Assembly: GCF_000017305.1 (NCBI RefSeq)
Contig: NC_009664.2
Span: 1,020,001-1,052,000, forward strand
Length of the DNA: 32,000 bases
Direction of reading: 5' to 3'
Origin: Kineococcus radiotolerans SRS30216 = ATCC BAA-149
Lineage (GTDB): Bacteria; Actinomycetota; Actinomycetes; Actinomycetales; Kineococcaceae
Shown here: piece by piece, positions 16,863 to 28,845 of the stretch
Layout of the letters: each line of letters begins with the position of its first letter
Numbering within the stretch: the stretch's first letter is position 1
Program-made: the position numbers and the translations under genes
Notes under the pieces: model-generated
What the model saw: the letters and a program-made list of their open reading frames with translations, nothing else
Told to the model about the DNA's origin: nothing
Databases searched by the model: none

Positions 16863-16918
16863 CCCCTCCGCCCCCACTGCCGTGACCGCGCCCGGGGGTC
16901 GGCTGCGAGGATGCTCCC

Positions 16919-18268
16919 GTGACTGAGGACGACCCCGCCCGCACCCCGGGCAGCGCAGGACCCACCGACCGGTTGTGGGCGGCCCCCACCGCCGCCGGCC
17001 CCCTGGACGCCGTGGTCGCCGTGCCCGGGTCGAAGTCGCTCACCAACCGCTACCTGGTGGTGGCGGCCCTGGCCGAGCGGCCCTCGCTGCTGCGCGGCCC
17101 GCTCGCCTCGCGCGACACGCTGCTCATGGTCGACGCCCTGCGCCTGCTCGGGGCCGACGTCGCCGAGGGCGGCCGCGACGCGCCGGGCGTGGACCCGGCG
17201 GACTGGGTGGTGCGACCGGGACCGGTCACCGGCGGCGCCCGGATCGACTGCGGCCTGGCCGGCACCGTGATGCGCTTCCTGCCCCCGGTGGCGGCCCTGG
17301 CCGAGGAGCCCGTCCACTTCGACGGCGACGACCGCGCCCGCGAGCGCCCGATGGGGGCGGTGCTCGACGGCCTGCGCCAGCTCGGCGCCCTCGTCGACGA
17401 CGGCGGCCGGGGGCTGCTGCCCTTCAGCGTCCAGGGCCCCGCGGGTGGCCTGCGCGGCGGGCCGGTCCGCATCGACGCCTCCGCCTCCAGCCAGTTCGTC
17501 TCCGCGCTGCTGCTGGTGGGGGCCCGGACCCGCGAGGGCCTGGAGCTGGTCCACGAGGGCCCGCCGGTGCCGAGCGAGCCGCACGTGCGGATGACGGTGG
17601 AAGTGCTGCGCGACGTCGGGGTCGTCGTGGACGACTCCACCCCCGGCCGGTGGTTCGTCGAGGCCGGGGAGATCAACCCCCTCGACGTGCAGGTCGAGCC
17701 GGACCTGTCCAACGCCGGTCCCTTCCTCGCCGCGGCCGCGGTCGCGGGCGGGCGGGTGCGCGTCCCGGGCTGGCCGCAGTCCACGACCCAGGCCGGGGAC
17801 CTGCTGCGCGACGTGCTGGACCAGATGGGCGCGGAGGTGAACCTGGACCGCGAGGGCCTCGTGGTCGAGGGCACCGGCGAGCTGTACGGCATCGACCTGG
17901 ACCTGCACGAGGCCGGTGAGCTGGCCCCGGTCATCACCGCCCTCGCCGCGCTGGCCTCCTCCCCGACCCGGCTGCGCGGCATCGCCCACCTGCGCGGGCA
18001 CGAGACCGACCGGCTGAAGGCGCTGGTCACCGAGGTCAACGCCCTGGGCGGTCAGGCCGAGGAGACGATCGACGGGCTGCTGGTGCGCCCGCGGCCGCTG
18101 CACGGCGGGGTGTTCCGCACCTACGCCGACCACCGGATGGCCACCGCCGGGGCGCTGCTGGGCCTCACCGTGCCCGGCGTCCTCGTGGAGGACGTCGCCA
18201 CCACCCGCAAGACGCTGCCGGACTTCCCCGGGATGTGGGCGTCCATGCTCGCCGGGACCCCGGCCTGA
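16919..18268 (+). CDS. aroA: 3-phosphoshikimate 1-carboxyvinyltransferase (EPSP synthase)
   Basis: VPGSKSLTNRYLVVAAL, LAGTVMRFL, SSQFVSALLL and DHRMATAGALL motifs. Length is 449 aa. Confidence 0.93.
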   Translation: MTEDDPARTPGSAGPTDRLWAAPTAAGPLDAVVAVPGSKSLTNRYLVVAALAERPSLLRGPLASRDTLLMVDALRLLGADVAEGGRDAPGVDPADWVVRPGPVTGGARIDCGLAGTVMRFLPPVAALAEEPVHFDGDDRARERPMGAVLDGLRQLGALVDDGGRGLLPFSVQGPAGGLRGGPVRIDASASSQFVSALLLVGARTREGLELVHEGPPVPSEPHVRMTVEVLRDVGVVVDDSTPGRWFVEAGEINPLDVQVEPDLSNAGPFLAAAAVAGGRVRVPGWPQSTTQAGDLLRDVLDQMGAEVNLDREGLVVEGTGELYGIDLDLHEAGELAPVITALAALASSPTRLRGIAHLRGHETDRLKALVTEVNALGGQAEETIDGLLVRPRPLHGGVFRTYADHRMATAGALLGLTVPGVLVEDVATTRKTLPDFPGMWASMLAGTPA

Positions 18269-24660: not shown

Positions 24661-25140
24661 TCACGGCCGGTGGGCCGGCGCTCGGCGCCGGAGGGTCTTG
24701 GCCAGGTGCACGAGGGGGACGCCGCGGTCGTCGGCGCTCTCCGCCGTGCGGGTGTACCCGGCCCGCTCGTAGCGGGCGACGTTCTCCGCCGACCCGCCCC
24801 CGGTGAACAGCCGGAACTCCGAGACCGACTGCGGCGCAGCGTCCTCCGCCGCCCGCAGCAGTTCCGTCCCCAGTCCCCGCCGCTGCTGGTCGGGGGCGAC
24901 GGCGAGCCGGCCCACGTGGCCGGTCGCCCCCTCCACCCGCACCCGCACCGACCCCACGACCCGACTGCCGCGCAGCGCGACCAGCACGACCTGGTCCGCG
25001 ATCGCCGCCCGCACCGCGTCGAGGTCCTCGCGCAGCGGGGGCAGGAACGGGTCGCCGTAGCGCTGGGCCTCGGCGACGAAGGCCGCGCGCTGGACGGTGA
25101 GCAGTTCCCCCGCGTCCTCGTCCAGCGCGCGACGGATCAC
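24661..25140 (-). CDS. GNAT family N-acetyltransferase
   Basis: Acetyl-CoA motif A RLAVAPDQQRRGLGTELL, with beta-strands before and ERAGY after. GTG 25140 overlaps the upstream zwf-like stop (GTGA). Confidence 0.82.
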   Translation of the reverse strand: MIRRALDEDAGELLTVQRAAFVAEAQRYGDPFLPPLREDLDAVRAAIADQVVLVALRGSRVVGSVRVRVEGATGHVGRLAVAPDQQRRGLGTELLRAAEDAAPQSVSEFRLFTGGGSAENVARYERAGYTRTAESADDRGVPLVHLAKTLRRRAPAHRP

Positions 25141-26579
25141 GACCTCAGGAACCACTGCCCCGGTTCCGCGAGCGCGTCGGCGGCTTCCGGGCCCCAGGTG
25201 CCCGGCGCGTAGGGCAGCACCGCGGGGCGGTCGTTCGAGAACCGCTCGATGCAGGTCCACGCCGCGCGCAGGCCCTCGACCCCGGTGAACAGCGACCGGT
25301 CGCCGGTGAGGACGTGCTCGATGAGGTGGACGTAGGGCAGGGCGGGTTCGCCCAGCCCGGCCAGCGGCAGCGTCGCCGTCCCCTGCGTCGTGCCCCCGGC
25401 CACGCCCGGCTCGCGCACGGTCAGCGCCACGTCGACCGCGCCGCCCTCGAGCAGCGAGAAGCTGATGGTCGAGGGCGCCGTCGCGGACCCGGCGTAGGGA
25501 CCGTCCTCGGGGGTCCTCAGGACGAGGGTGACCCGCTGCTCGTCGGCGGTCATCCTCTTGCCCGAGCGCAGCAGGAACGGCACCCCGCGCCAGCGGTCGT
25601 TGTCGATCCACACCCGCGCCGCGGCGAGGGTGTCGGTCGTGGAGTCGTCGGGGACGCCGTCGATGTCGGTGTAGCCCTCGAACTGCCCCAGCACCACCTC
25701 GGCCGGGTCCAGCTCGCGGAAGTCCTGCAGCGCGGCGTCGCGCGCGGCCTGCAGGGCCCCGGGGCCGAGGTCGGCGGGGGGTTCCATGGCGACCGTGGCG
25801 GCCATCTGGAACAGGTGGGTCACGATCATGTCCAGGAACGCGCCGGTCGCGTCGTAGAAGCTTGCGCGCTGGGCGACGTCGAGGGTCTCGGCGACGTCGA
25901 CCTGGACCTGCGCGACGTGCTCGCGGTTCCAGATCGAGGCCAGCCACGGGTTGGCGAACCGGGCGTGCATGACGTCCTGCTGCGCCTCGAAGGCCAGGAA
26001 GTGGTCGATGCGGAAGACCTGGGACTCGTCGAACACCCGCTGGACCTCGGCGTCGAGCTCCTCGAAGCTCGCCAGCGAGGTGCCGTAGGGCTTCTCGTAG
26101 ACGACGCGGGAACCCTCGACGAGACCGTGCGCCTCGAAGCCCTTCGTGGTGTCCAGGAAGGCCCCCGGCGGGATGGCCAGGTAGTGCACCAGCTCCGCCT
26201 CGCCCCCCAGCGCCTCGCGGGCCTGCGCCAGGACCCCGGGCAGCTCGCCCGAGTCGGCCTCGGTGAACCCGCCCCCGGCGAACAGCAGGTTCGCGGCGAA
26301 CTCGTCCCAGGGGCCGTCGGCGGGCTGCGGGCCGAACTCCTCCAGCGCCTCGCGGATGAAGTCGCGGAACTCCTCGTGGGTCTTCTCCCCCCGCCCGCAC
26401 CCGATCAGGCGCCACTGCCGGGGCAGCCGGCCCAGGCGGGCGAGCTCGAAGAAGGCCGGGGAGACCAGCCGGCGGGAGAGGTCGCCGGTGGCGCCGTACA
26501 TCACGAAGATCGTGGGCTGCTCCGGGCCGGACCCGTCGGCCGGGCTGCCGGACTGCGCTGTCTGCGGTGCGGTGGTCAC
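25137..26579 (-). CDS. zwf: Glucose-6-phosphate dehydrogenase family protein (divergent paralogue)
   Basis: GATGDLSRR dinucleotide motif, EKPYG, RIDHFLAFE (canonical RIDHYLGKE), THLFQMAATVAMEPP and RWRGVPFLLRSGKR. The start is GTG 26579 (VTTAPQTAQ...). No opcA follows. Confidence 0.8.
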   Translation of the reverse strand: MTTAPQTAQSGSPADGSGPEQPTIFVMYGATGDLSRRLVSPAFFELARLGRLPRQWRLIGCGRGEKTHEEFRDFIREALEEFGPQPADGPWDEFAANLLFAGGGFTEADSGELPGVLAQAREALGGEAELVHYLAIPPGAFLDTTKGFEAHGLVEGSRVVYEKPYGTSLASFEELDAEVQRVFDESQVFRIDHFLAFEAQQDVMHARFANPWLASIWNREHVAQVQVDVAETLDVAQRASFYDATGAFLDMIVTHLFQMAATVAMEPPADLGPGALQAARDAALQDFRELDPAEVVLGQFEGYTDIDGVPDDSTTDTLAAARVWIDNDRWRGVPFLLRSGKRMTADEQRVTLVLRTPEDGPYAGSATAPSTISFSLLEGGAVDVALTVREPGVAGGTTQGTATLPLAGLGEPALPYVHLIEHVLTGDRSLFTGVEGLRAAWTCIERFSNDRPAVLPYAPGTWGPEAADALAEPGQWFLRS

Positions 26580-26665
26580 CCGCGCACCGTATTGCCTCCG
26601 GGCCGGGGCCGCGCCCCTGCCCGCGCCCTTGCCCGCGCCCGGCCGGCGCGGTCTAAGGTGTCCCC

Positions 26666-26758
26666 GTGACCACCACCGCCCCCCTCCGGGGAGCCTCCGC
26701 CGCCGGCGCGCCCGCGCCGCGCCGCGGTGCGTGGTGGTGGGTGTCGGCGGTCGCCTGA
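26666..26758 (+). CDS. Candidate tryptophan-rich leader peptide (30 aa, WWW)
   Basis: GTG 26666 comes after an in-frame TAA (26654) and AAGG (26655-26658). The peptide is MTTTAPLRGASAAGAPAPRRGAWWWVSAVA, ending at TGA 26756-26758. TGG TGG TGG lies at 26732-26740. 27 of 29 codons end in G/C. It sits 95 nt upstream of the fused trpE/G-like gene. Confidence 0.55.
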   Translation: MTTTAPLRGASAAGAPAPRRGAWWWVSAVA

Positions 26759-26774
26759 CGCTCGTTCGTCCCGG

Positions 26775-26797
26775 TGGCCGCCTCGTCGAGGAGGCCG
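26775..26797 (+). promoter_or_regulatory. GC-rich hairpin candidate in the leader (possible attenuator element)
   Basis: GGCCGCCTC (26776-26784) pairs with GAGGAGGCC (26788-26796) with one mismatch and a 3-nt loop. There is no U-tract. It has not been folded computationally. Confidence 0.2.
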
Positions 26798-26853
26798 ACC
26801 CCGTGGACGCCCCCTCGCCGGGCGGCTCCCCCAGCCCCTCCGAGGAGAACCCG

Positions 26854-28845
26854 ATGACACCCCCGCAGACCCCCGCGGACCCCGAGACCACCGCGGACGA
26901 GCTCGTCGCCGAGCTGCTGGCCCCCGGCGCCGGTCCCTTCGCGCTGCTGCGCCGCCTCGACCCGCGCACCGGGGTCCCTGGCCCGGTCGAGGTGCTGCGC
27001 GGTCCCGTCGAGGTCGTGGAGCACCTCGCCGACGTCCCGCTGCGCGAGCGCACCGCCCGCGACGCGCTGGCCCTGGTCCCCTTCCGGCAGCTGCGCGAAC
27101 GCGGGTTCGAGGTCCACGACGACGGCACCCCGCTGCAGGTGCTGCGCATCGACTCCGCCCGCGACCTCTCCCTCGAGGACGCGCTGCGCGCCCTGCCCGA
27201 CGCCGAGGTCGCCCTGCGCGACGTCGCCCCCGACCTCTCCGACGACGACTACGCCGCGGTGGTGCGGCGCATCGTCGACGAGGAGATCGCCCAGGGCTCG
27301 GGCGCGAACTTCGTCGTGCGCCGCGACGTCGACGGGGTGATCGACGGGTTCTCCGCGACGACGGCGCTGAGCCTGTTCCGCCGCCTCCTCGTCGCCGAGC
27401 AGGGCGCGTACTGGACCTTCGTCGTCCACGTGCCGGGGGACGCCGGAGCCGGTCGCAGCACGTCCCGCACGCTCGTGGGGGCCAGCCCCGAGGTGCACGT
27501 GCGGATGGCCCGCGGCGAGGTCGTCATGAACCCCATCTCGGGCACGTACCGCTACCCCGCCACCGGCCCCGACCCCGACGGCCTCGTCGAGTTCCTCACC
27601 GACCCCAAGGAGGTCGAGGAGCTCTTCATGGTGGTCGACGAGGAGCTGAAGATGATGTGCTCGGTCGGCGACCTCGGCGGGGTCGTCCACGGGCCGTACC
27701 TGCGCGAGATGGCCAACCTCGCCCACACCGAGTTCGAGCTGCGCGGGCAGACCACCCTGGACGCCCGGGAGGTGCTGCGCCAGACCATGTTCGCCGCCAC
27801 CGTGACGGGCAGCCCGCTGCAGAGCGCGTGCCGGGTCATCAAGCGCTTCGAGCCGTCCGGGCGCGGGTACTACGCCGGGGCGCTGGCCCTGCTGGGCACC
27901 GACGCCGACGGCGCCCAGACGCTGGACTCCCCCATCCTCATCCGCACCGCCGACGTGCGCGCCGACGGCCCCACCGCGCGGGTCCGGGTGTCGGTGGGCG
28001 CGACCCTGGTGCGCGGGTCCACCCCCGAGGGCGAGGTCGCCGAGACCCACGCGAAGTCCGCCGGGGTCCTGCGCGCGCTGGGGGCGCTGCCCCCGCTGCC
28101 GGCCCGCACCGGCGCCGACGGCGCCCCGGTGCGGCGCGTGCCGCTGCTGGCCGACCCCCGGGTCGCCACCCTGCTGGCCTCCCGGCGCGACCGGCTGGCC
28201 CCGTTCTGGCTCGAACCGCAGGCCCAGCCGGCGGGTTCGCCCCTGGGGCGGGCGCTGGTGGTCGACGCCGAGGACACCTTCACCGCGATGCTCGTGCACC
28301 TGCTGGCCTCCGCGGGGCTGCGGGCCCGGGTCCTGCGCCACGACGACCCCGCCCTGGACGCCGCGCTGGCCGCGCACGAGGGGCTGGTGCTGCTGGGCCC
28401 CGGCCCCGGCGACCCCGAGGACGCCTCGGACCCCCGCATCGCCCGTCTGCAGGACCTCGCCGCGCGCCTGTCCGACGCCGCGCGCTCGGGCGGCAACCCG
28501 CTGCTGGGGGTCTGCCTGGGCCACCAGCTGCTGTCGGGAACGCTGGGTCTGCCGTTGCGACGCAAGGACTCCCCCCACCAGGGCACCCAGCTCGACGTGG
28601 ACCTGTTCGGCACCACCGCGCGGGTGGGGTTCTACAACTCCTTCACCGCCCGCGTCGACGGGGCCGCGATCGCCCGCCTCGGCGCGGACGGCGTCGAGGT
28701 CGCGACCGGACCGGCCGACGAGGTCGTGGCGGTGCGGGGGCGGGGTTTCGCGGGCATCCAGTTCCACCCCGAGTCGGTCCTCACCCAGGACGGGCCCCGG
28801 GTGCTGCGCTCGCTGGTGGAGCCCCTGCTCACCGGCCGGGGCTGA
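26854..28845 (+). CDS. Fused anthranilate synthase family protein (chorismate-utilising TrpE-like domain + TrpG-type glutamine amidotransferase; PhzE architecture)
   Basis: MST-domain motifs GASPEVHVRM, NPISGTY and GRGYYAGAL. C-terminal GATase-1 triad context GVCLGHQLL and IQFHPES. ATG 26854 lies 6 nt after GAGGAG. Confidence 0.88.
   Translation: MTPPQTPADPETTADELVAELLAPGAGPFALLRRLDPRTGVPGPVEVLRGPVEVVEHLADVPLRERTARDALALVPFRQLRERGFEVHDDGTPLQVLRIDSARDLSLEDALRALPDAEVALRDVAPDLSDDDYAAVVRRIVDEEIAQGSGANFVVRRDVDGVIDGFSATTALSLFRRLLVAEQGAYWTFVVHVPGDAGAGRSTSRTLVGASPEVHVRMARGEVVMNPISGTYRYPATGPDPDGLVEFLTDPKEVEELFMVVDEELKMMCSVGDLGGVVHGPYLREMANLAHTEFELRGQTTLDAREVLRQTMFAATVTGSPLQSACRVIKRFEPSGRGYYAGALALLGTDADGAQTLDSPILIRTADVRADGPTARVRVSVGATLVRGSTPEGEVAETHAKSAGVLRALGALPPLPARTGADGAPVRRVPLLADPRVATLLASRRDRLAPFWLEPQAQPAGSPLGRALVVDAEDTFTAMLVHLLASAGLRARVLRHDDPALDAALAAHEGLVLLGPGPGDPEDASDPRIARLQDLAARLSDAARSGGNPLLGVCLGHQLLSGTLGLPLRRKDSPHQGTQLDVDLFGTTARVGFYNSFTARVDGAAIARLGADGVEVATGPADEVVAVRGRGFAGIQFHPESVLTQDGPRVLRSLVEPLLTGRG

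Follow-up and report, generated by a model that had tools for sequence, protein, structure and literature searches.

The closest described counterpart of the locus analysed here is the trpL1-trpE(G) attenuator of Streptomyces, whose trpL leader (MFAHSTRNWWWTAHPAAH) has been studied experimentally (Lin et al. 1998, as cited in PMC1262725; PMC8079986). The studied species was S. venezuelae (Lin et al. 1998, as cited in PMC1262725), S. coelicolor and S. avermitilis have predicted attenuators of this type (PMC1262725), and mapping of the trpL1 transcription start site in S. lividans TK24 revealed a leaderless transcript (PMC8079986). In a comparative survey of 2005, whose genomes included that of Kineococcus radiotolerans, Corynebacterium and Streptomyces were the only genera with reported trp attenuators (PMC1262725). 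Other parallels are the enterobacterial trp leader (RF00513), as in E. coli, the trpL-trpE(G) element of Sinorhizobium meliloti (PMC6614838) and the leaderless short-ORF translational attenuators that exist in mycobacteria (bioRxiv 10.1101/834739).

We analysed a 32-kb stretch of K. radiotolerans DNA (hereafter the window) that contains the gene trpEG. Comparison of orthologues and RNA folding indicate that the leader before this gene is very probably a Trp-sensing leader-peptide attenuator. It represents no new principle and would be an attenuator of a known kind. Our overall reading, only slightly less certain, is that of a trpL-type ribosome-mediated Trp attenuator of trpEG that has the Streptomyces trpL1-trpE(G) architecture (table 1); its most likely output is a relay to the Shine-Dalgarno (SD) sequence of the gene. 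A preliminary description of the window had proposed a candidate ribosome-mediated attenuator at this place, a proposal now supported by a conserved ORF, mutually exclusive helices and the attenuator of the orthologous Streptomyces gene.

Table 1. Features of the putative attenuator and of the gene that it precedes (positions within the window).
Feature	Position	Strand	Remark
-35-like TTGCCC, weak, 19 nt upstream of the -10	26629..26634	+	same spacing in 9/14 Kineococcus leaders
-10 hexamer TAAGGT (TANNNT type), 6 nt from the leader GTG	26654..26659	+	conserved spacing
trpL-type leader peptide ORF, MTTTAPLRGASAAGAPAPRRGAWWWVSAVA and stop	26666..26758	+	frame kept in 16/16 Kineococcus loci
Predicted hairpin 0:1 over the leader ORF, codons 2-5 (CCACCACCGC) with the Trp-codon region (GCGUGGUGGUGG)	26670..26741	+	MFE
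Three tandem Trp codons, TGG TGG TGG, putative sensor	26732..26740	+	invariant across all Kineococcus loci
Segment 2, GGCGGUCGCC, final leader codons	26746..26755	+	pairs with segment 3 (predicted)
Segment 3, GGUGGCCGCCUC, common to helices 2:3 and 3:4	26773..26784	+	folding and alignment
Segment 4, GAGGAGGCC, SD-like	26788..26796	+	pairs with segment 3 (predicted)
Segment 5, CCCCCUCGCCGG	26810..26821	+	holds the conserved CCUCG block 26813-26817
SD sequence of trpEG, GAGGAG, 6 nt before ATG 26854	26842..26847	+	CGAGGAG invariant in Kineococcus
trpEG, fused TrpE-TrpG anthranilate synthase, 663 aa, putative regulated gene	26854..28845	+	Pfam PF00425 and PF00117

The product of trpEG is identical to the K. 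radiotolerans protein WP_049821417.1 and carries fused Chorismate_bind and GATase domains. The gene is monocistronic, the following gene being on the opposite strand, and its divergent neighbour is zwf. Its closest solved structure is PhzE (3R74, E 9e-155), and the protein is the orthologue of the Streptomyces fused TrpEG (~60% identity), whose S. venezuelae member is reportedly a genuine anthranilate synthase (Ashenafi et al. 2008, as cited in PMC3111181). A Trp leader peptide also precedes a single fused trpE(G) gene in Sinorhizobium meliloti (PMC6614838), but that fusion is of a different type, since its model TIGR01815 gives the K. radiotolerans protein 120 bits against a cut-off of 739 bits.

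Upstream of trpEG, the program-made ORF list contains a frame of 30 codons that begins with GTG and ends with TGA; its product can also be written (M/V)TTTAPLRGASAAGAPAPRRGAWWWVSAVA and stop, with the alternative first residue shown. This leader ORF of K. radiotolerans is real and is not annotated. The frame, its translation (MTTTAPLRGASAAGAPAPRRGAWWWVSAVA), its three TGG codons and the 95 nt between its stop and the start codon of trpEG are all located where the preliminary description had placed them. The last Trp codon lies five codons before the stop, and the third-position G/C bias that had been pointed out holds for 28 of the 30 codons. The warning that WWW alone may arise by chance was also justified: the window contains three copies of TGGTGGTGG where 0.51 would be expected, and among 100 shuffles 3 have as many. 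By itself the nonamer is not significant; the significance of the leader ORF rests on its conservation.

Alignment of the upstream regions recovers the WWW ORF in frame before the trpEG orthologue in 16/16 Kineococcus loci with readable upstream DNA, which is the conservation that the preliminary description had asked for. These ORFs have 25-30 codons and finish at the same place, with (G/R)AWWW, five or six further codons and TGA. Their N-terminal part varies in sequence and length, and their C-terminal part is invariant at the nucleotide level. Outside the genus, the orthologue has a WW/WWW leader before it in Actinopolyspora and at about 70 (nearly all of 74) Streptomyces/Kitasatospora loci, the latter leaders being the known trpL1-trpE(G) attenuator. 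A common order is found in all four genera: TANNNT, 6-8 nt, start codon, WW(W), hairpin, anti-SD, SD. Two marks of a trpL1-trpE(G)-type leader, an ORF with tandem Trp codons and its conservation in frame, are thus present. It is extremely improbable that the frame is open by chance in GC-rich DNA and that the sequence conservation reflects a promoter or operator used jointly with the divergent gene zwf. The three copies of the nonamer, the ordinary fold of the whole region (see below) and the frequency of long spurious ORFs at 76% GC would agree with such an explanation, but the TANNNT-start-WWW-TGA frame is kept in 16/16 species despite indels that change it from 25 to 30 codons, a WW/WWW ORF stands before the orthologue in three other genera in which the neighbouring genes differ, and a PhzE-like homologue beside an isochorismatase gene has no such ORF.

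A covariance model built from the Kineococcus leaders gave a held-out Kineococcus locus 131 bits, retrieved none of the Streptomyces leaders and gave the Actinopolyspora leader 24.9 bits, which is not above the negative controls (23.9). Because the model does not detect them, the homology of the Kineococcus and Streptomyces leaders rests on synteny and architecture. Rfam 15 at gathering thresholds, including Trp_leader (RF00513), gave no match in the window, and at E <= 10 there was none in 26500-26950. A pattern scan of metagenomes with GCGTGGTGGTGGGN{5,20}GCCTGA returned at least 120 matches; all those listed were rejected as leaders because they are due to chance.

The sequence before the leader ORF resembles a promoter. 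In the 14 Kineococcus loci scanned, TANNNT (TAAGGT, TAGGGT or TATGGT) stands 6-8 nt before the start codon, and loci L211 and L212 have TAAGGT at the same place. In every Kineococcus locus the T and A that open the hexamer and the T that closes it are unchanged. A TTGCC(C/T) motif is found 19 nt from the -10 in 9 of the 14 leaders. TANNNT also precedes the leader start in 58 of 68 Streptomyces/Kitasatospora leaders and in Actinopolyspora. The preliminary description had read the K. radiotolerans hexamer as an in-frame TAA followed by AAGG. The stop is indeed in frame (26654-26656), leaving the frame open from 26657, but AAGG is better read as part of a -10 box, given the invariant T, A and T and the spacing of 6-8 nt. 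AAGG was rejected as an SD sequence of the leader, since only the T, A and T never vary and TATGGT takes the place of TAAGGT in four species. A sigma-70 consensus scan made no promoter call in the region, this consensus being unsuited to K. radiotolerans. A -10 box at such a distance from the start codon implies a leaderless mRNA for the leader peptide, and transcription probably starts at or near G26666.

Downstream of the Trp codons, two alternative helices share segment 3. Segment 2 starts 6 nt past the last Trp codon and extends to 1 nt from the stop, a placing that would let a ribosome at the stop codon cover it. The hairpin of helix 2:3 (26744-26784) has a predicted dG of -24.8 kcal/mol (z -4.11) and that of helix 3:4 (26766-26810) one of -26.2 kcal/mol (z -2.81), and 0/200 shuffles match in either case. 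The two are nearly isoenergetic and mutually exclusive, with an overlap at 26773-26784. The GC-rich pairing proposed earlier within 3:4, between 26776-26784 (GGCCGCCUC) and 26788-26796 (GAGGAGGCC), forms at 8 of 9 positions, and an extended 3:4 hairpin adds the outer arms 26768-26774 and 26801-26808 to segments 3 and 4. Helices 2:3 and 3:4 fit 85-95% of the alignment cells (94.6% are paired in segment 2) compared with 29-63% for slid controls. Compensating changes occur in K. gynurae (L081), where a G>A change in segment 2 accompanies a C>U change in segment 3, and segment 4 has an A facing the U. For the 14 Kineococcus leaders, the covariation score was matched by shuffles 199 times in 500 (ON structure) and 68 times in 500 (OFF structure), weak statistics that are explained by the close similarity of these leaders to each other. 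The fold of the whole region (26640-26870, 231 nt) is unremarkable (z -1.05) and uninformative at 76% GC. The alternative helices foreseen by the preliminary description were therefore found, and they are mutually exclusive and beat shuffles, but the fold of the whole region is ordinary.

The leader shares several elements with Streptomyces trpL1-trpE(G). In both, the leader stands before an orthologous monocistronic fused trpEG, has a TANNNT -10 box 6-8 nt from the start and three Trp codons, and is followed by a predicted anti-SD/SD helix ahead of the gene, the overall length being 150-188 nt. The G-rich last codons of both leaders can pair with a GGCCGCC core, which alternatively pairs with a downstream arm. 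This core of segment 3 is also present in Actinopolyspora leaders, and a GGCGGCC-like segment inside the end of the ORF, with a GGCCGCC hairpin after it, recurs in Streptomyces/Kitasatospora and Actinopolyspora. The enterobacterial trp leader is alike in its short ORF, its tandem Trp codons and the role of ribosome position in selecting 2:3 or 3:4. In contrast to it, the K. radiotolerans leader is probably leaderless, has no U-tract and precedes a single fused trpEG and not an operon. Moreover, no 1:2 pairing is evident in K. radiotolerans; the Trp codons are predicted to pair with codons 2-5, forming hairpin 0:1, which is the MFE structure of 26666-26745 (-51.0 kcal/mol, z -2.76). All 13 Kineococcus leaders that were folded share its closing stem, and 9 of them reach z <= -1.95; hairpin 0:1 is possibly a pause or synchronising hairpin.

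Helix 3:4 is not a canonical terminator, because no U-tract stands behind its stem. Only 0-2 T are found in the 12 nt after the stem in 14/14 Kineococcus leaders, compared with 3-8 (mean 5.6) after the equivalent stem in 73 Streptomyces/Kitasatospora loci, and the longest T run anywhere in the Kineococcus spacer is 1-2. A terminator scan of 26450-26950 found no terminator-like site. The terminator/antiterminator pair expected by the preliminary description thus holds as a pair of alternative helices and fails as a canonical terminator. Classical transcription attenuation, in which 3:4 (26768-26808) would terminate without a U-tract in a non-canonical or factor-assisted way and the anti-SD would be incidental or a second layer, appears rather unlikely. 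It would fit with 2:3 and 3:4 being the best-supported helices in the window and with the homologous Streptomyces hairpin, which has a U-rich tail and is regarded as a terminator. Furthermore, a consensus scan found no canonical terminators in the whole window, so the organism must often end transcripts in other ways, and the missing U-tract may simply reflect how the K. radiotolerans genome terminates transcription. Against it stand the 0-2 T in every Kineococcus leader and the finding that mycobacterial RNA polymerase, the sole actinobacterial enzyme tested, needs a U-tract in vitro, where NusG aids only suboptimal U-tracts (PMC3993855). It also leaves unexplained an invariant CCUCG(A)CG block and the SD-like segment 4. 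The Sinorhizobium element is described as attenuating transcription and giving off an attenuator sRNA (PMC6614838), in contrast to the K. radiotolerans leader with its missing U-tract. As 3:4 is without a U-tract in any Kineococcus species, the relay to the SD is a likelier output than intrinsic termination.

Evidence for this relay comes mainly from the other Kineococcus species. CCTCG is invariant within their otherwise variable spacer. The block is complementary to CGAGG in segment 4 and to CGAGG in the SD of trpEG; the RNAalifold consensus pairs it with the SD, and the 5:SD pairing is always CCUCG:CGAGG. Among 10 other orthologues, z is <= -2 for hairpin 4:5 in 9 and <= -1.9 for helix 5:SD in 5, but in the window neither is better than shuffles (z +0.12 and -0.66, respectively). 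Because the spacer is C-rich, no more than 7 of 14 Kineococcus leaders have an anti-SD duplex that is better than shuffles at p <= 0.05; the equivalent helix in Streptomyces beats them in 61% of 71 loci. Ribosome states were folded using only the RNA 3' of the ribosome, as spurious long-range pairs to the 5' part dominate the full-leader equilibrium fold with a masked ribosome footprint. With a ribosome at the first Trp codon, 2:3 together with 4:5 is the MFE structure in most orthologues, and accessibility of the SD rises ~2-fold in 8/14 leaders and does not increase in 6/14; in the window it is alike between the ribosome states (0.37 vs 0.41). The missing U-tract and a CCUCG block able to pair with either segment 4 or the SD point to attenuation at the level of translation, perhaps with polarity through Rho, moderately so overall and weakly so in the window. 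A mainly translational output is put forward with some reserve, as slightly less than an even prospect.

In the mechanism that we propose, transcription would start ~7 nt past TAAGGT and the mRNA would begin at the leader GUG. With plentiful Trp-tRNA, the ribosome would reach UGA 26756-26758 and cover segment 2, leaving segment 3 to pair with segment 4 in the extended hairpin. Segment 5 would then bind the SD of trpEG through CCUCG and keep ribosomes from initiating, and as a second effect Rho might terminate on the C-rich RNA left untranslated. Under Trp-tRNA shortage, the ribosome would stall at the first Trp codons (26732 onwards), and the free segment 2 would pair with segment 3 and displace helix 3:4; the freed segment 4 would take segment 5 and the SD would be open. 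Termination by Rho may instead be the main output: after release of the leader ribosome at UGA, Rho would load on the spacer 26797-26853, which is rich in C and poor in G, and a ribosome stalled at the Trp codons would give rise to 2:3 and 4:5, with the loading site hidden or trpEG translated, and so block Rho. We consider this unlikely. Each of the 14 leaders has a spacer C/G ratio within 1.19-1.72. Measured against the window, the spacer stands at the 92nd-95th percentile, which makes its C-richness only moderately unusual, and the folds predict base-pairing for much of this C-rich RNA in either ribosome state. Conditional termination in M. tuberculosis is reported to be mostly Rho-dependent and tied to translated uORFs (bioRxiv 10.1101/2022.06.01.494293), and by way of polarity a Rho model would agree with the translational relay.

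The relay has its nearest likeness in mycobacterial polycysteine short ORFs. These are also actinobacterial and leaderless (a property predicted here from sequence), with a run of codons for the end product and no intrinsic terminator, and in both cases the proposed output is sequestration of the SD that stalling relieves, with possible Rho polarity (bioRxiv 10.1101/834739). They sense Cys, while the codons of the Kineococcus leader point to Trp. In mycobacterial Ms5788A it is the Cys codons that form pairs with the SD region. The Kineococcus Trp codons have codons 2-5 as partners and do not pair with the SD region, whose partner is 26813-26817; the SD is predicted to be reached by the chain of helices 2:3, 3:4, 4:5 and 5:SD. 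Compared with Streptomyces, Kineococcus has lost the U-rich tail after 3:4, and its segment 4 mimics the SD so that CCUCG can pair with either. A more speculative view, somewhat less probable than a mainly translational output, is that the leaders of Kineococcus, and perhaps Actinopolyspora, are a terminator-less derivative of trpL that works as a pure 'domino' (2:3/3:4/4:5/5:SD) on a leaderless mRNA. If this is true, stalling at the Trp codons would be relayed over ~100 nt to the trpEG SD, the leader would be the first Trp-sensing leader-peptide-based translational attenuator, and it would represent a natural intermediate between transcriptional and translational attenuation within one homologous family.

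It is very unlikely that the peptide itself is functional, as a trans-acting small protein like Sinorhizobium peTrpL, possibly besides a role in cis. A trp leader peptide of this kind has a precedent, as reported in PMC7298713, and the C-terminal (G/R)AWWW motif is conserved, but the N-terminal two-thirds are free in sequence and length, and the 18-codon Streptomyces and 25-30-codon Kineococcus peptides have only WWW in common. In addition, conservation of the C-terminal codons extends to synonymous positions and falls on RNA segment 2, which argues for selection on the RNA.

With this attenuator, K. radiotolerans and its whole genus would gain an unannotated regulatory gene and an RNA switch, and at least two further actinobacterial lineages would share the leaderless start, the WWW and the GGCCGCC core that make up the trpL1-trpE(G) architecture of Streptomyces. 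The loss of the U-tract, the SD-mimicking segment 4 and the invariant anti-SD make the leader a convenient natural test case of how stalling is converted into gene control in terminator-poor, high-GC actinobacteria, by translation, Rho or non-canonical termination. The leader also accounts for the over-extension of an early trpEG gene model. The older GenBank product, ABS02687.1, has 704 aa compared with 663 aa at present, a difference in length that points to a start at GTG 26731. As this start overlapped the Trp codons, the leader would have been hidden in the older annotation.

The window has a G+C content of 75.8%, and the leader occupies a 274-nt divergent region with zwf on one side and trpEG on the other. 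The trpEG product, which begins at ATG 26854 in the current RefSeq annotation, is 100% identical to K. radiotolerans WP_049821417.1, while the older GenBank model, ABS02687.1, has 704 aa. The difference of 41 codons would put the ABS02687.1 start codon at GTG 26731, a single base ahead of the Trp codons and out of frame with them, so that this over-extended model covered them and the leader ORF stayed hidden. The ORF is real, its product is MTTTAPLRGASAAGAPAPRRGAWWWVSAVA, and re-checking the sequence confirmed every coordinate in the preliminary description, those of the ORF and of its three Trp codons among them. The caution that the tandem-Trp nonamer alone may arise by chance was also borne out: three copies were found in the window against 0.51 expected, a count not beyond chance. 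The ORF is distinguished from chance by its conservation across orthologous loci, not by the nonamer.

Features of the zwf-trpEG region (window positions; z, fold stability versus shuffled sequences)
Feature	Position	Strand	Energy (kcal/mol)	z	Remarks
zwf, glucose-6-phosphate dehydrogenase	25137-26579	-			Pfam G6PD_N, G6PD_C
Leader ORF (trpL)	26666-26758	+			GTG start, TGA stop
Trp codons, TGGTGGTGG	26732-26740	+			In the leader ORF
Hairpin across the whole leader ORF	26670-26741		-51	-2.8	
Helix 2:3	26746-26755 with 26773-26782		-24.8	-4.1	Segment 2 (last leader codons) with segment 3
Helix 3:4	26776-26784 with 26788-26796		-26.2	-2.8	Segment 3 with segment 4; outer arms 26768-26774 and 26801-26808
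Conserved spacer element	26810-26821				CCCCUCG(A)CGG
trpEG Shine-Dalgarno (SD)	26841-26847				CGAGGAG
trpEG	26854-28845	+			663 aa; Pfam Chorismate_bind and GATase, fused

Within Kineococcus, orthologues of the trpEG product are 75-98% identical to it; those of Streptomyces, Kitasatospora and Actinopolyspora are about 60% identical. The leader ORF, whose conservation the preliminary description had left to be checked, is present in all 16 Kineococcus loci whose upstream DNA could be read (the window, L001-L004, L006, L081-L088, L211 and L212), and zwf is the divergent upstream gene in 15 of them; in K. endophyticus, zwf and the leader are separated by an unannotated 86-aa ORF. These leaders run in frame for 25-30 codons, through (G/R)AWWW and VSAVA (variants VPATA, ATPSAA and ATPAAA) to TGA. 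The N-terminal two-thirds vary in sequence and length with the frame kept constant, while the final 13 or so codons are almost unchanged, synonymous sites included, which indicates selection for translating the Trp codons and for the RNA itself rather than for the peptide. Counterparts exist in other genera. The Streptomyces/Kitasatospora orthologues (L007-L080) almost always have MFAHSTQNWWWTAHPAAH or a variant upstream, and the leader of Actinopolyspora saharensis, MQPQ...STAWWPPTAACCLRV*, has only two Trp codons. The MFAHSTQNWWWTAHPAAH-type leader is trpL1 of S. lividans (PMC8079986) and, in the trpEG attenuator of S. venezuelae, the trpL already described (Lin et al. 1998, as cited in PMC1262725). 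No such Trp-codon ORF was found upstream of a PhzE-like homologue (57.6% G+C) adjoining an isochorismatase gene.

The actinobacterial -10 consensus is TANNNT. In the 16 Kineococcus loci the leader start, GTG or ATG, lies 6-8 nt 3' of such a hexamer, in the form TAAGGT, TAGGGT or TATGGT. The TAA at 26654 and the AAGG after it are present as first described; their reading as a stop codon and ribosome-binding site gives way to that of a -10 hexamer. AAGG was rejected as a leader Shine-Dalgarno because only T1, A2 and T6 of the hexamer are invariant in Kineococcus. A -35-like TTGCC(C/T) occurs 19 nt upstream of the -10 in 9 of 14 Kineococcus leaders. The arrangement TAGGGT-N7-ATG is found in 58 of 68 Streptomyces/Kitasatospora leaders, the Actinopolyspora leader has the same hexamer-to-start arrangement, and the S. 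lividans trpL1 transcript is leaderless by experimental mapping (PMC8079986). From the conserved TANNNT spacing and the S. lividans mapping, we infer a leaderless trpL-trpEG mRNA, beginning at G26666 or an adjacent nucleotide, as the template for translation of the leader peptide. On the opposite strand, TACGGT lies 6 nt upstream of the zwf start, GTG 26579 (26579-26600), so the zwf mRNA may be leaderless too. The two -10 candidates are about 60 nt apart on opposite strands, and the divergent promoter region is very compact.

Rfam gave no match to the leader region, and the fold of the whole region is unremarkable (z -1.05); its sub-regions were informative. Segments 2 to 5 denote pairing stretches of the leader RNA, numbered 5' to 3'. 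The search for mutually exclusive helices proposed in the preliminary description returned 2:3 and 3:4, each equalled in stability by 0 of 200 shuffles. They exclude each other at nearly equal energies, and mutually exclusive, nearly isoenergetic helices are the hallmark of an attenuator. The ribosome footprint is assumed to extend some 12-13 nt past the A site on the 3' side. A ribosome whose A site holds the first Trp codon would then have its leading edge near 26745 and leave segment 2 unoccupied, and one at the leader stop codon would cover it wholly, a predicted geometry that fits the attenuator helices. In an alignment of 14 sequences, helices 2:3 and 3:4 fit 85-95% of cells, compared with 29-63% for slid controls. 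Their covariation among the 14 Kineococcus leaders is not significant, because these leaders are too similar; the sole clear compensating event is in K. gynurae, with G>A in segment 2, C>U in segment 3 and an A opposite the U in segment 4. Leader codons 2-5 (CCACCACCGC, ACC ACC ACC GCC) and the Trp codons (GGUGGUGG) are complementary; the two regions pair in the MFE of 13 of 13 Kineococcus leaders folded, and the hairpin spanning the ORF has z <= -1.95 in nine of 13. It may be a pause or synchronising hairpin, functionally analogous to E. coli 1:2, or a by-product of composition.

By its sequence, the K. radiotolerans leader is a predicted functional and architectural member of the actinobacterial trpL1-trpE(G) attenuators. 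Unlike the Streptomyces members, it has no U-tract after the hairpin, and a covariance model of the Kineococcus leaders detected no similarity to Streptomyces leaders; homology therefore rests on what the two groups have in common, namely the position before an orthologous trpEG, the -10 spacing, the WWW codons and a GGCCGCC core. A 2005 survey that included K. radiotolerans reported trp attenuators in Corynebacterium and Streptomyces alone (PMC1262725), and no description of a Kineococcus trp leader was found in the literature searched. The kind of attenuator is already known, and the Kineococcus leader adds a new member. In Streptomyces and Kitasatospora a GGCCGCC...GGCGGCC hairpin is followed by a U-rich tail in 73 of 73 cases (3-8 T in 12 nt, mean 5.6), whereas Kineococcus has 0-2 T at the matching place and no T run longer than two throughout the 91-100-nt spacer (14 leaders scanned). 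No terminator-like site was called in the leader region, and a U-tract is required by the only actinobacterial RNA polymerase tested (PMC3993855). A consensus scan for a hairpin plus T run gave one weak site in the 32-kb window, the level expected by chance, and canonical intrinsic terminators appear rare in this genome. Because the entire window is without them, the missing U-tract is suggestive, not decisive, against intrinsic termination at the leader. Actinopolyspora saharensis (L210:1300-1506) has a 3:4 hairpin, GGGCCGCCUCGUCGAGGUGGCCC, of nearly Kineococcus sequence with no U-tract directly 3' of the stem, so the U-tract-less form is not limited to Kineococcus.

CCCCUCG(A)CGG is the most conserved element of the spacer, and its CCUCG has two complementary partners, the invariant SD and segment 4, an SD mimic (UCGUCGAGGAGG). 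Helices 2:3, 3:4, 4:5 and 5:SD form a chain in which each is incompatible with its neighbour; the state {2:3, 4:5} would free the SD and {3:4, 5:SD} would sequester it. Folding was restricted to the RNA downstream of the ribosome, with the ribosome set either at the first Trp codon or at the stop codon. The two states were the MFE in most orthologues, and in 8 of 14 the predicted SD accessibility was about 2-fold higher with the ribosome stalled. Among ten other orthologues, the 4:5 hairpin has z <= -2 in nine and 5:SD z <= -1.9 in five. For the K. radiotolerans leader, 4:5 is weakened by an A>C change in segment 5 (z +0.12), 5:SD is no better than shuffles (z -0.66), and predicted SD accessibility does not switch between ribosome states. 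Streptomyces and Kitasatospora leaders have a conserved anti-SD block, CCGUUCCUC (GGCCCUCC in Kitasatospora), 3' of the terminator and about 60-150 nt after the trpL stop. It is complementary to the trpE SD (GGAAGGAAC/GAGGAAC), and the pairing often continues into covarying flanks. In 61% of 71 loci the duplex of CCGUUCCUC with GGAAGGAAC outperforms shuffles at p <= 0.05, and no mention of this helix in Streptomyces trpL1-trpE leaders was found in the literature searched. Since an equivalent helix is conserved in Streptomyces, SD sequestration is apparently ancestral in the leader family. That the Kineococcus leader is a terminator-less, relay-type translational attenuator is a tentative reading, which we hold to be possible rather than probable. 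Rho could reinforce the OFF state, as the spacer is C-rich (C/G 1.2-1.7 in all orthologues; 92nd-95th percentile of the window); this would resemble the uORF-linked conditional termination proposed in M. tuberculosis and the polarity considered for the leaderless Cys attenuators of mycobacteria.

Among solved structures the trpEG product is closest to PhzE (3R74, E 9e-155); its scores with canonical TrpE chains are about 50 bits, and it reaches no equivalog cut-off in NCBIfam. The S. venezuelae orthologue is reported, in the title of Ashenafi et al. 2008 as cited in PMC3111181, to be a true anthranilate synthase, and the Trp-codon leader is itself evidence that trpEG serves tryptophan supply. 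Nine kb upstream of trpEG, at 16886-18268, lies aroA, which encodes the EPSP synthase of the shikimate pathway. The copy of TGGTGGTGG at 17055 has no connection with Trp sensing, because it is out of frame within aroA and read as Val codons.
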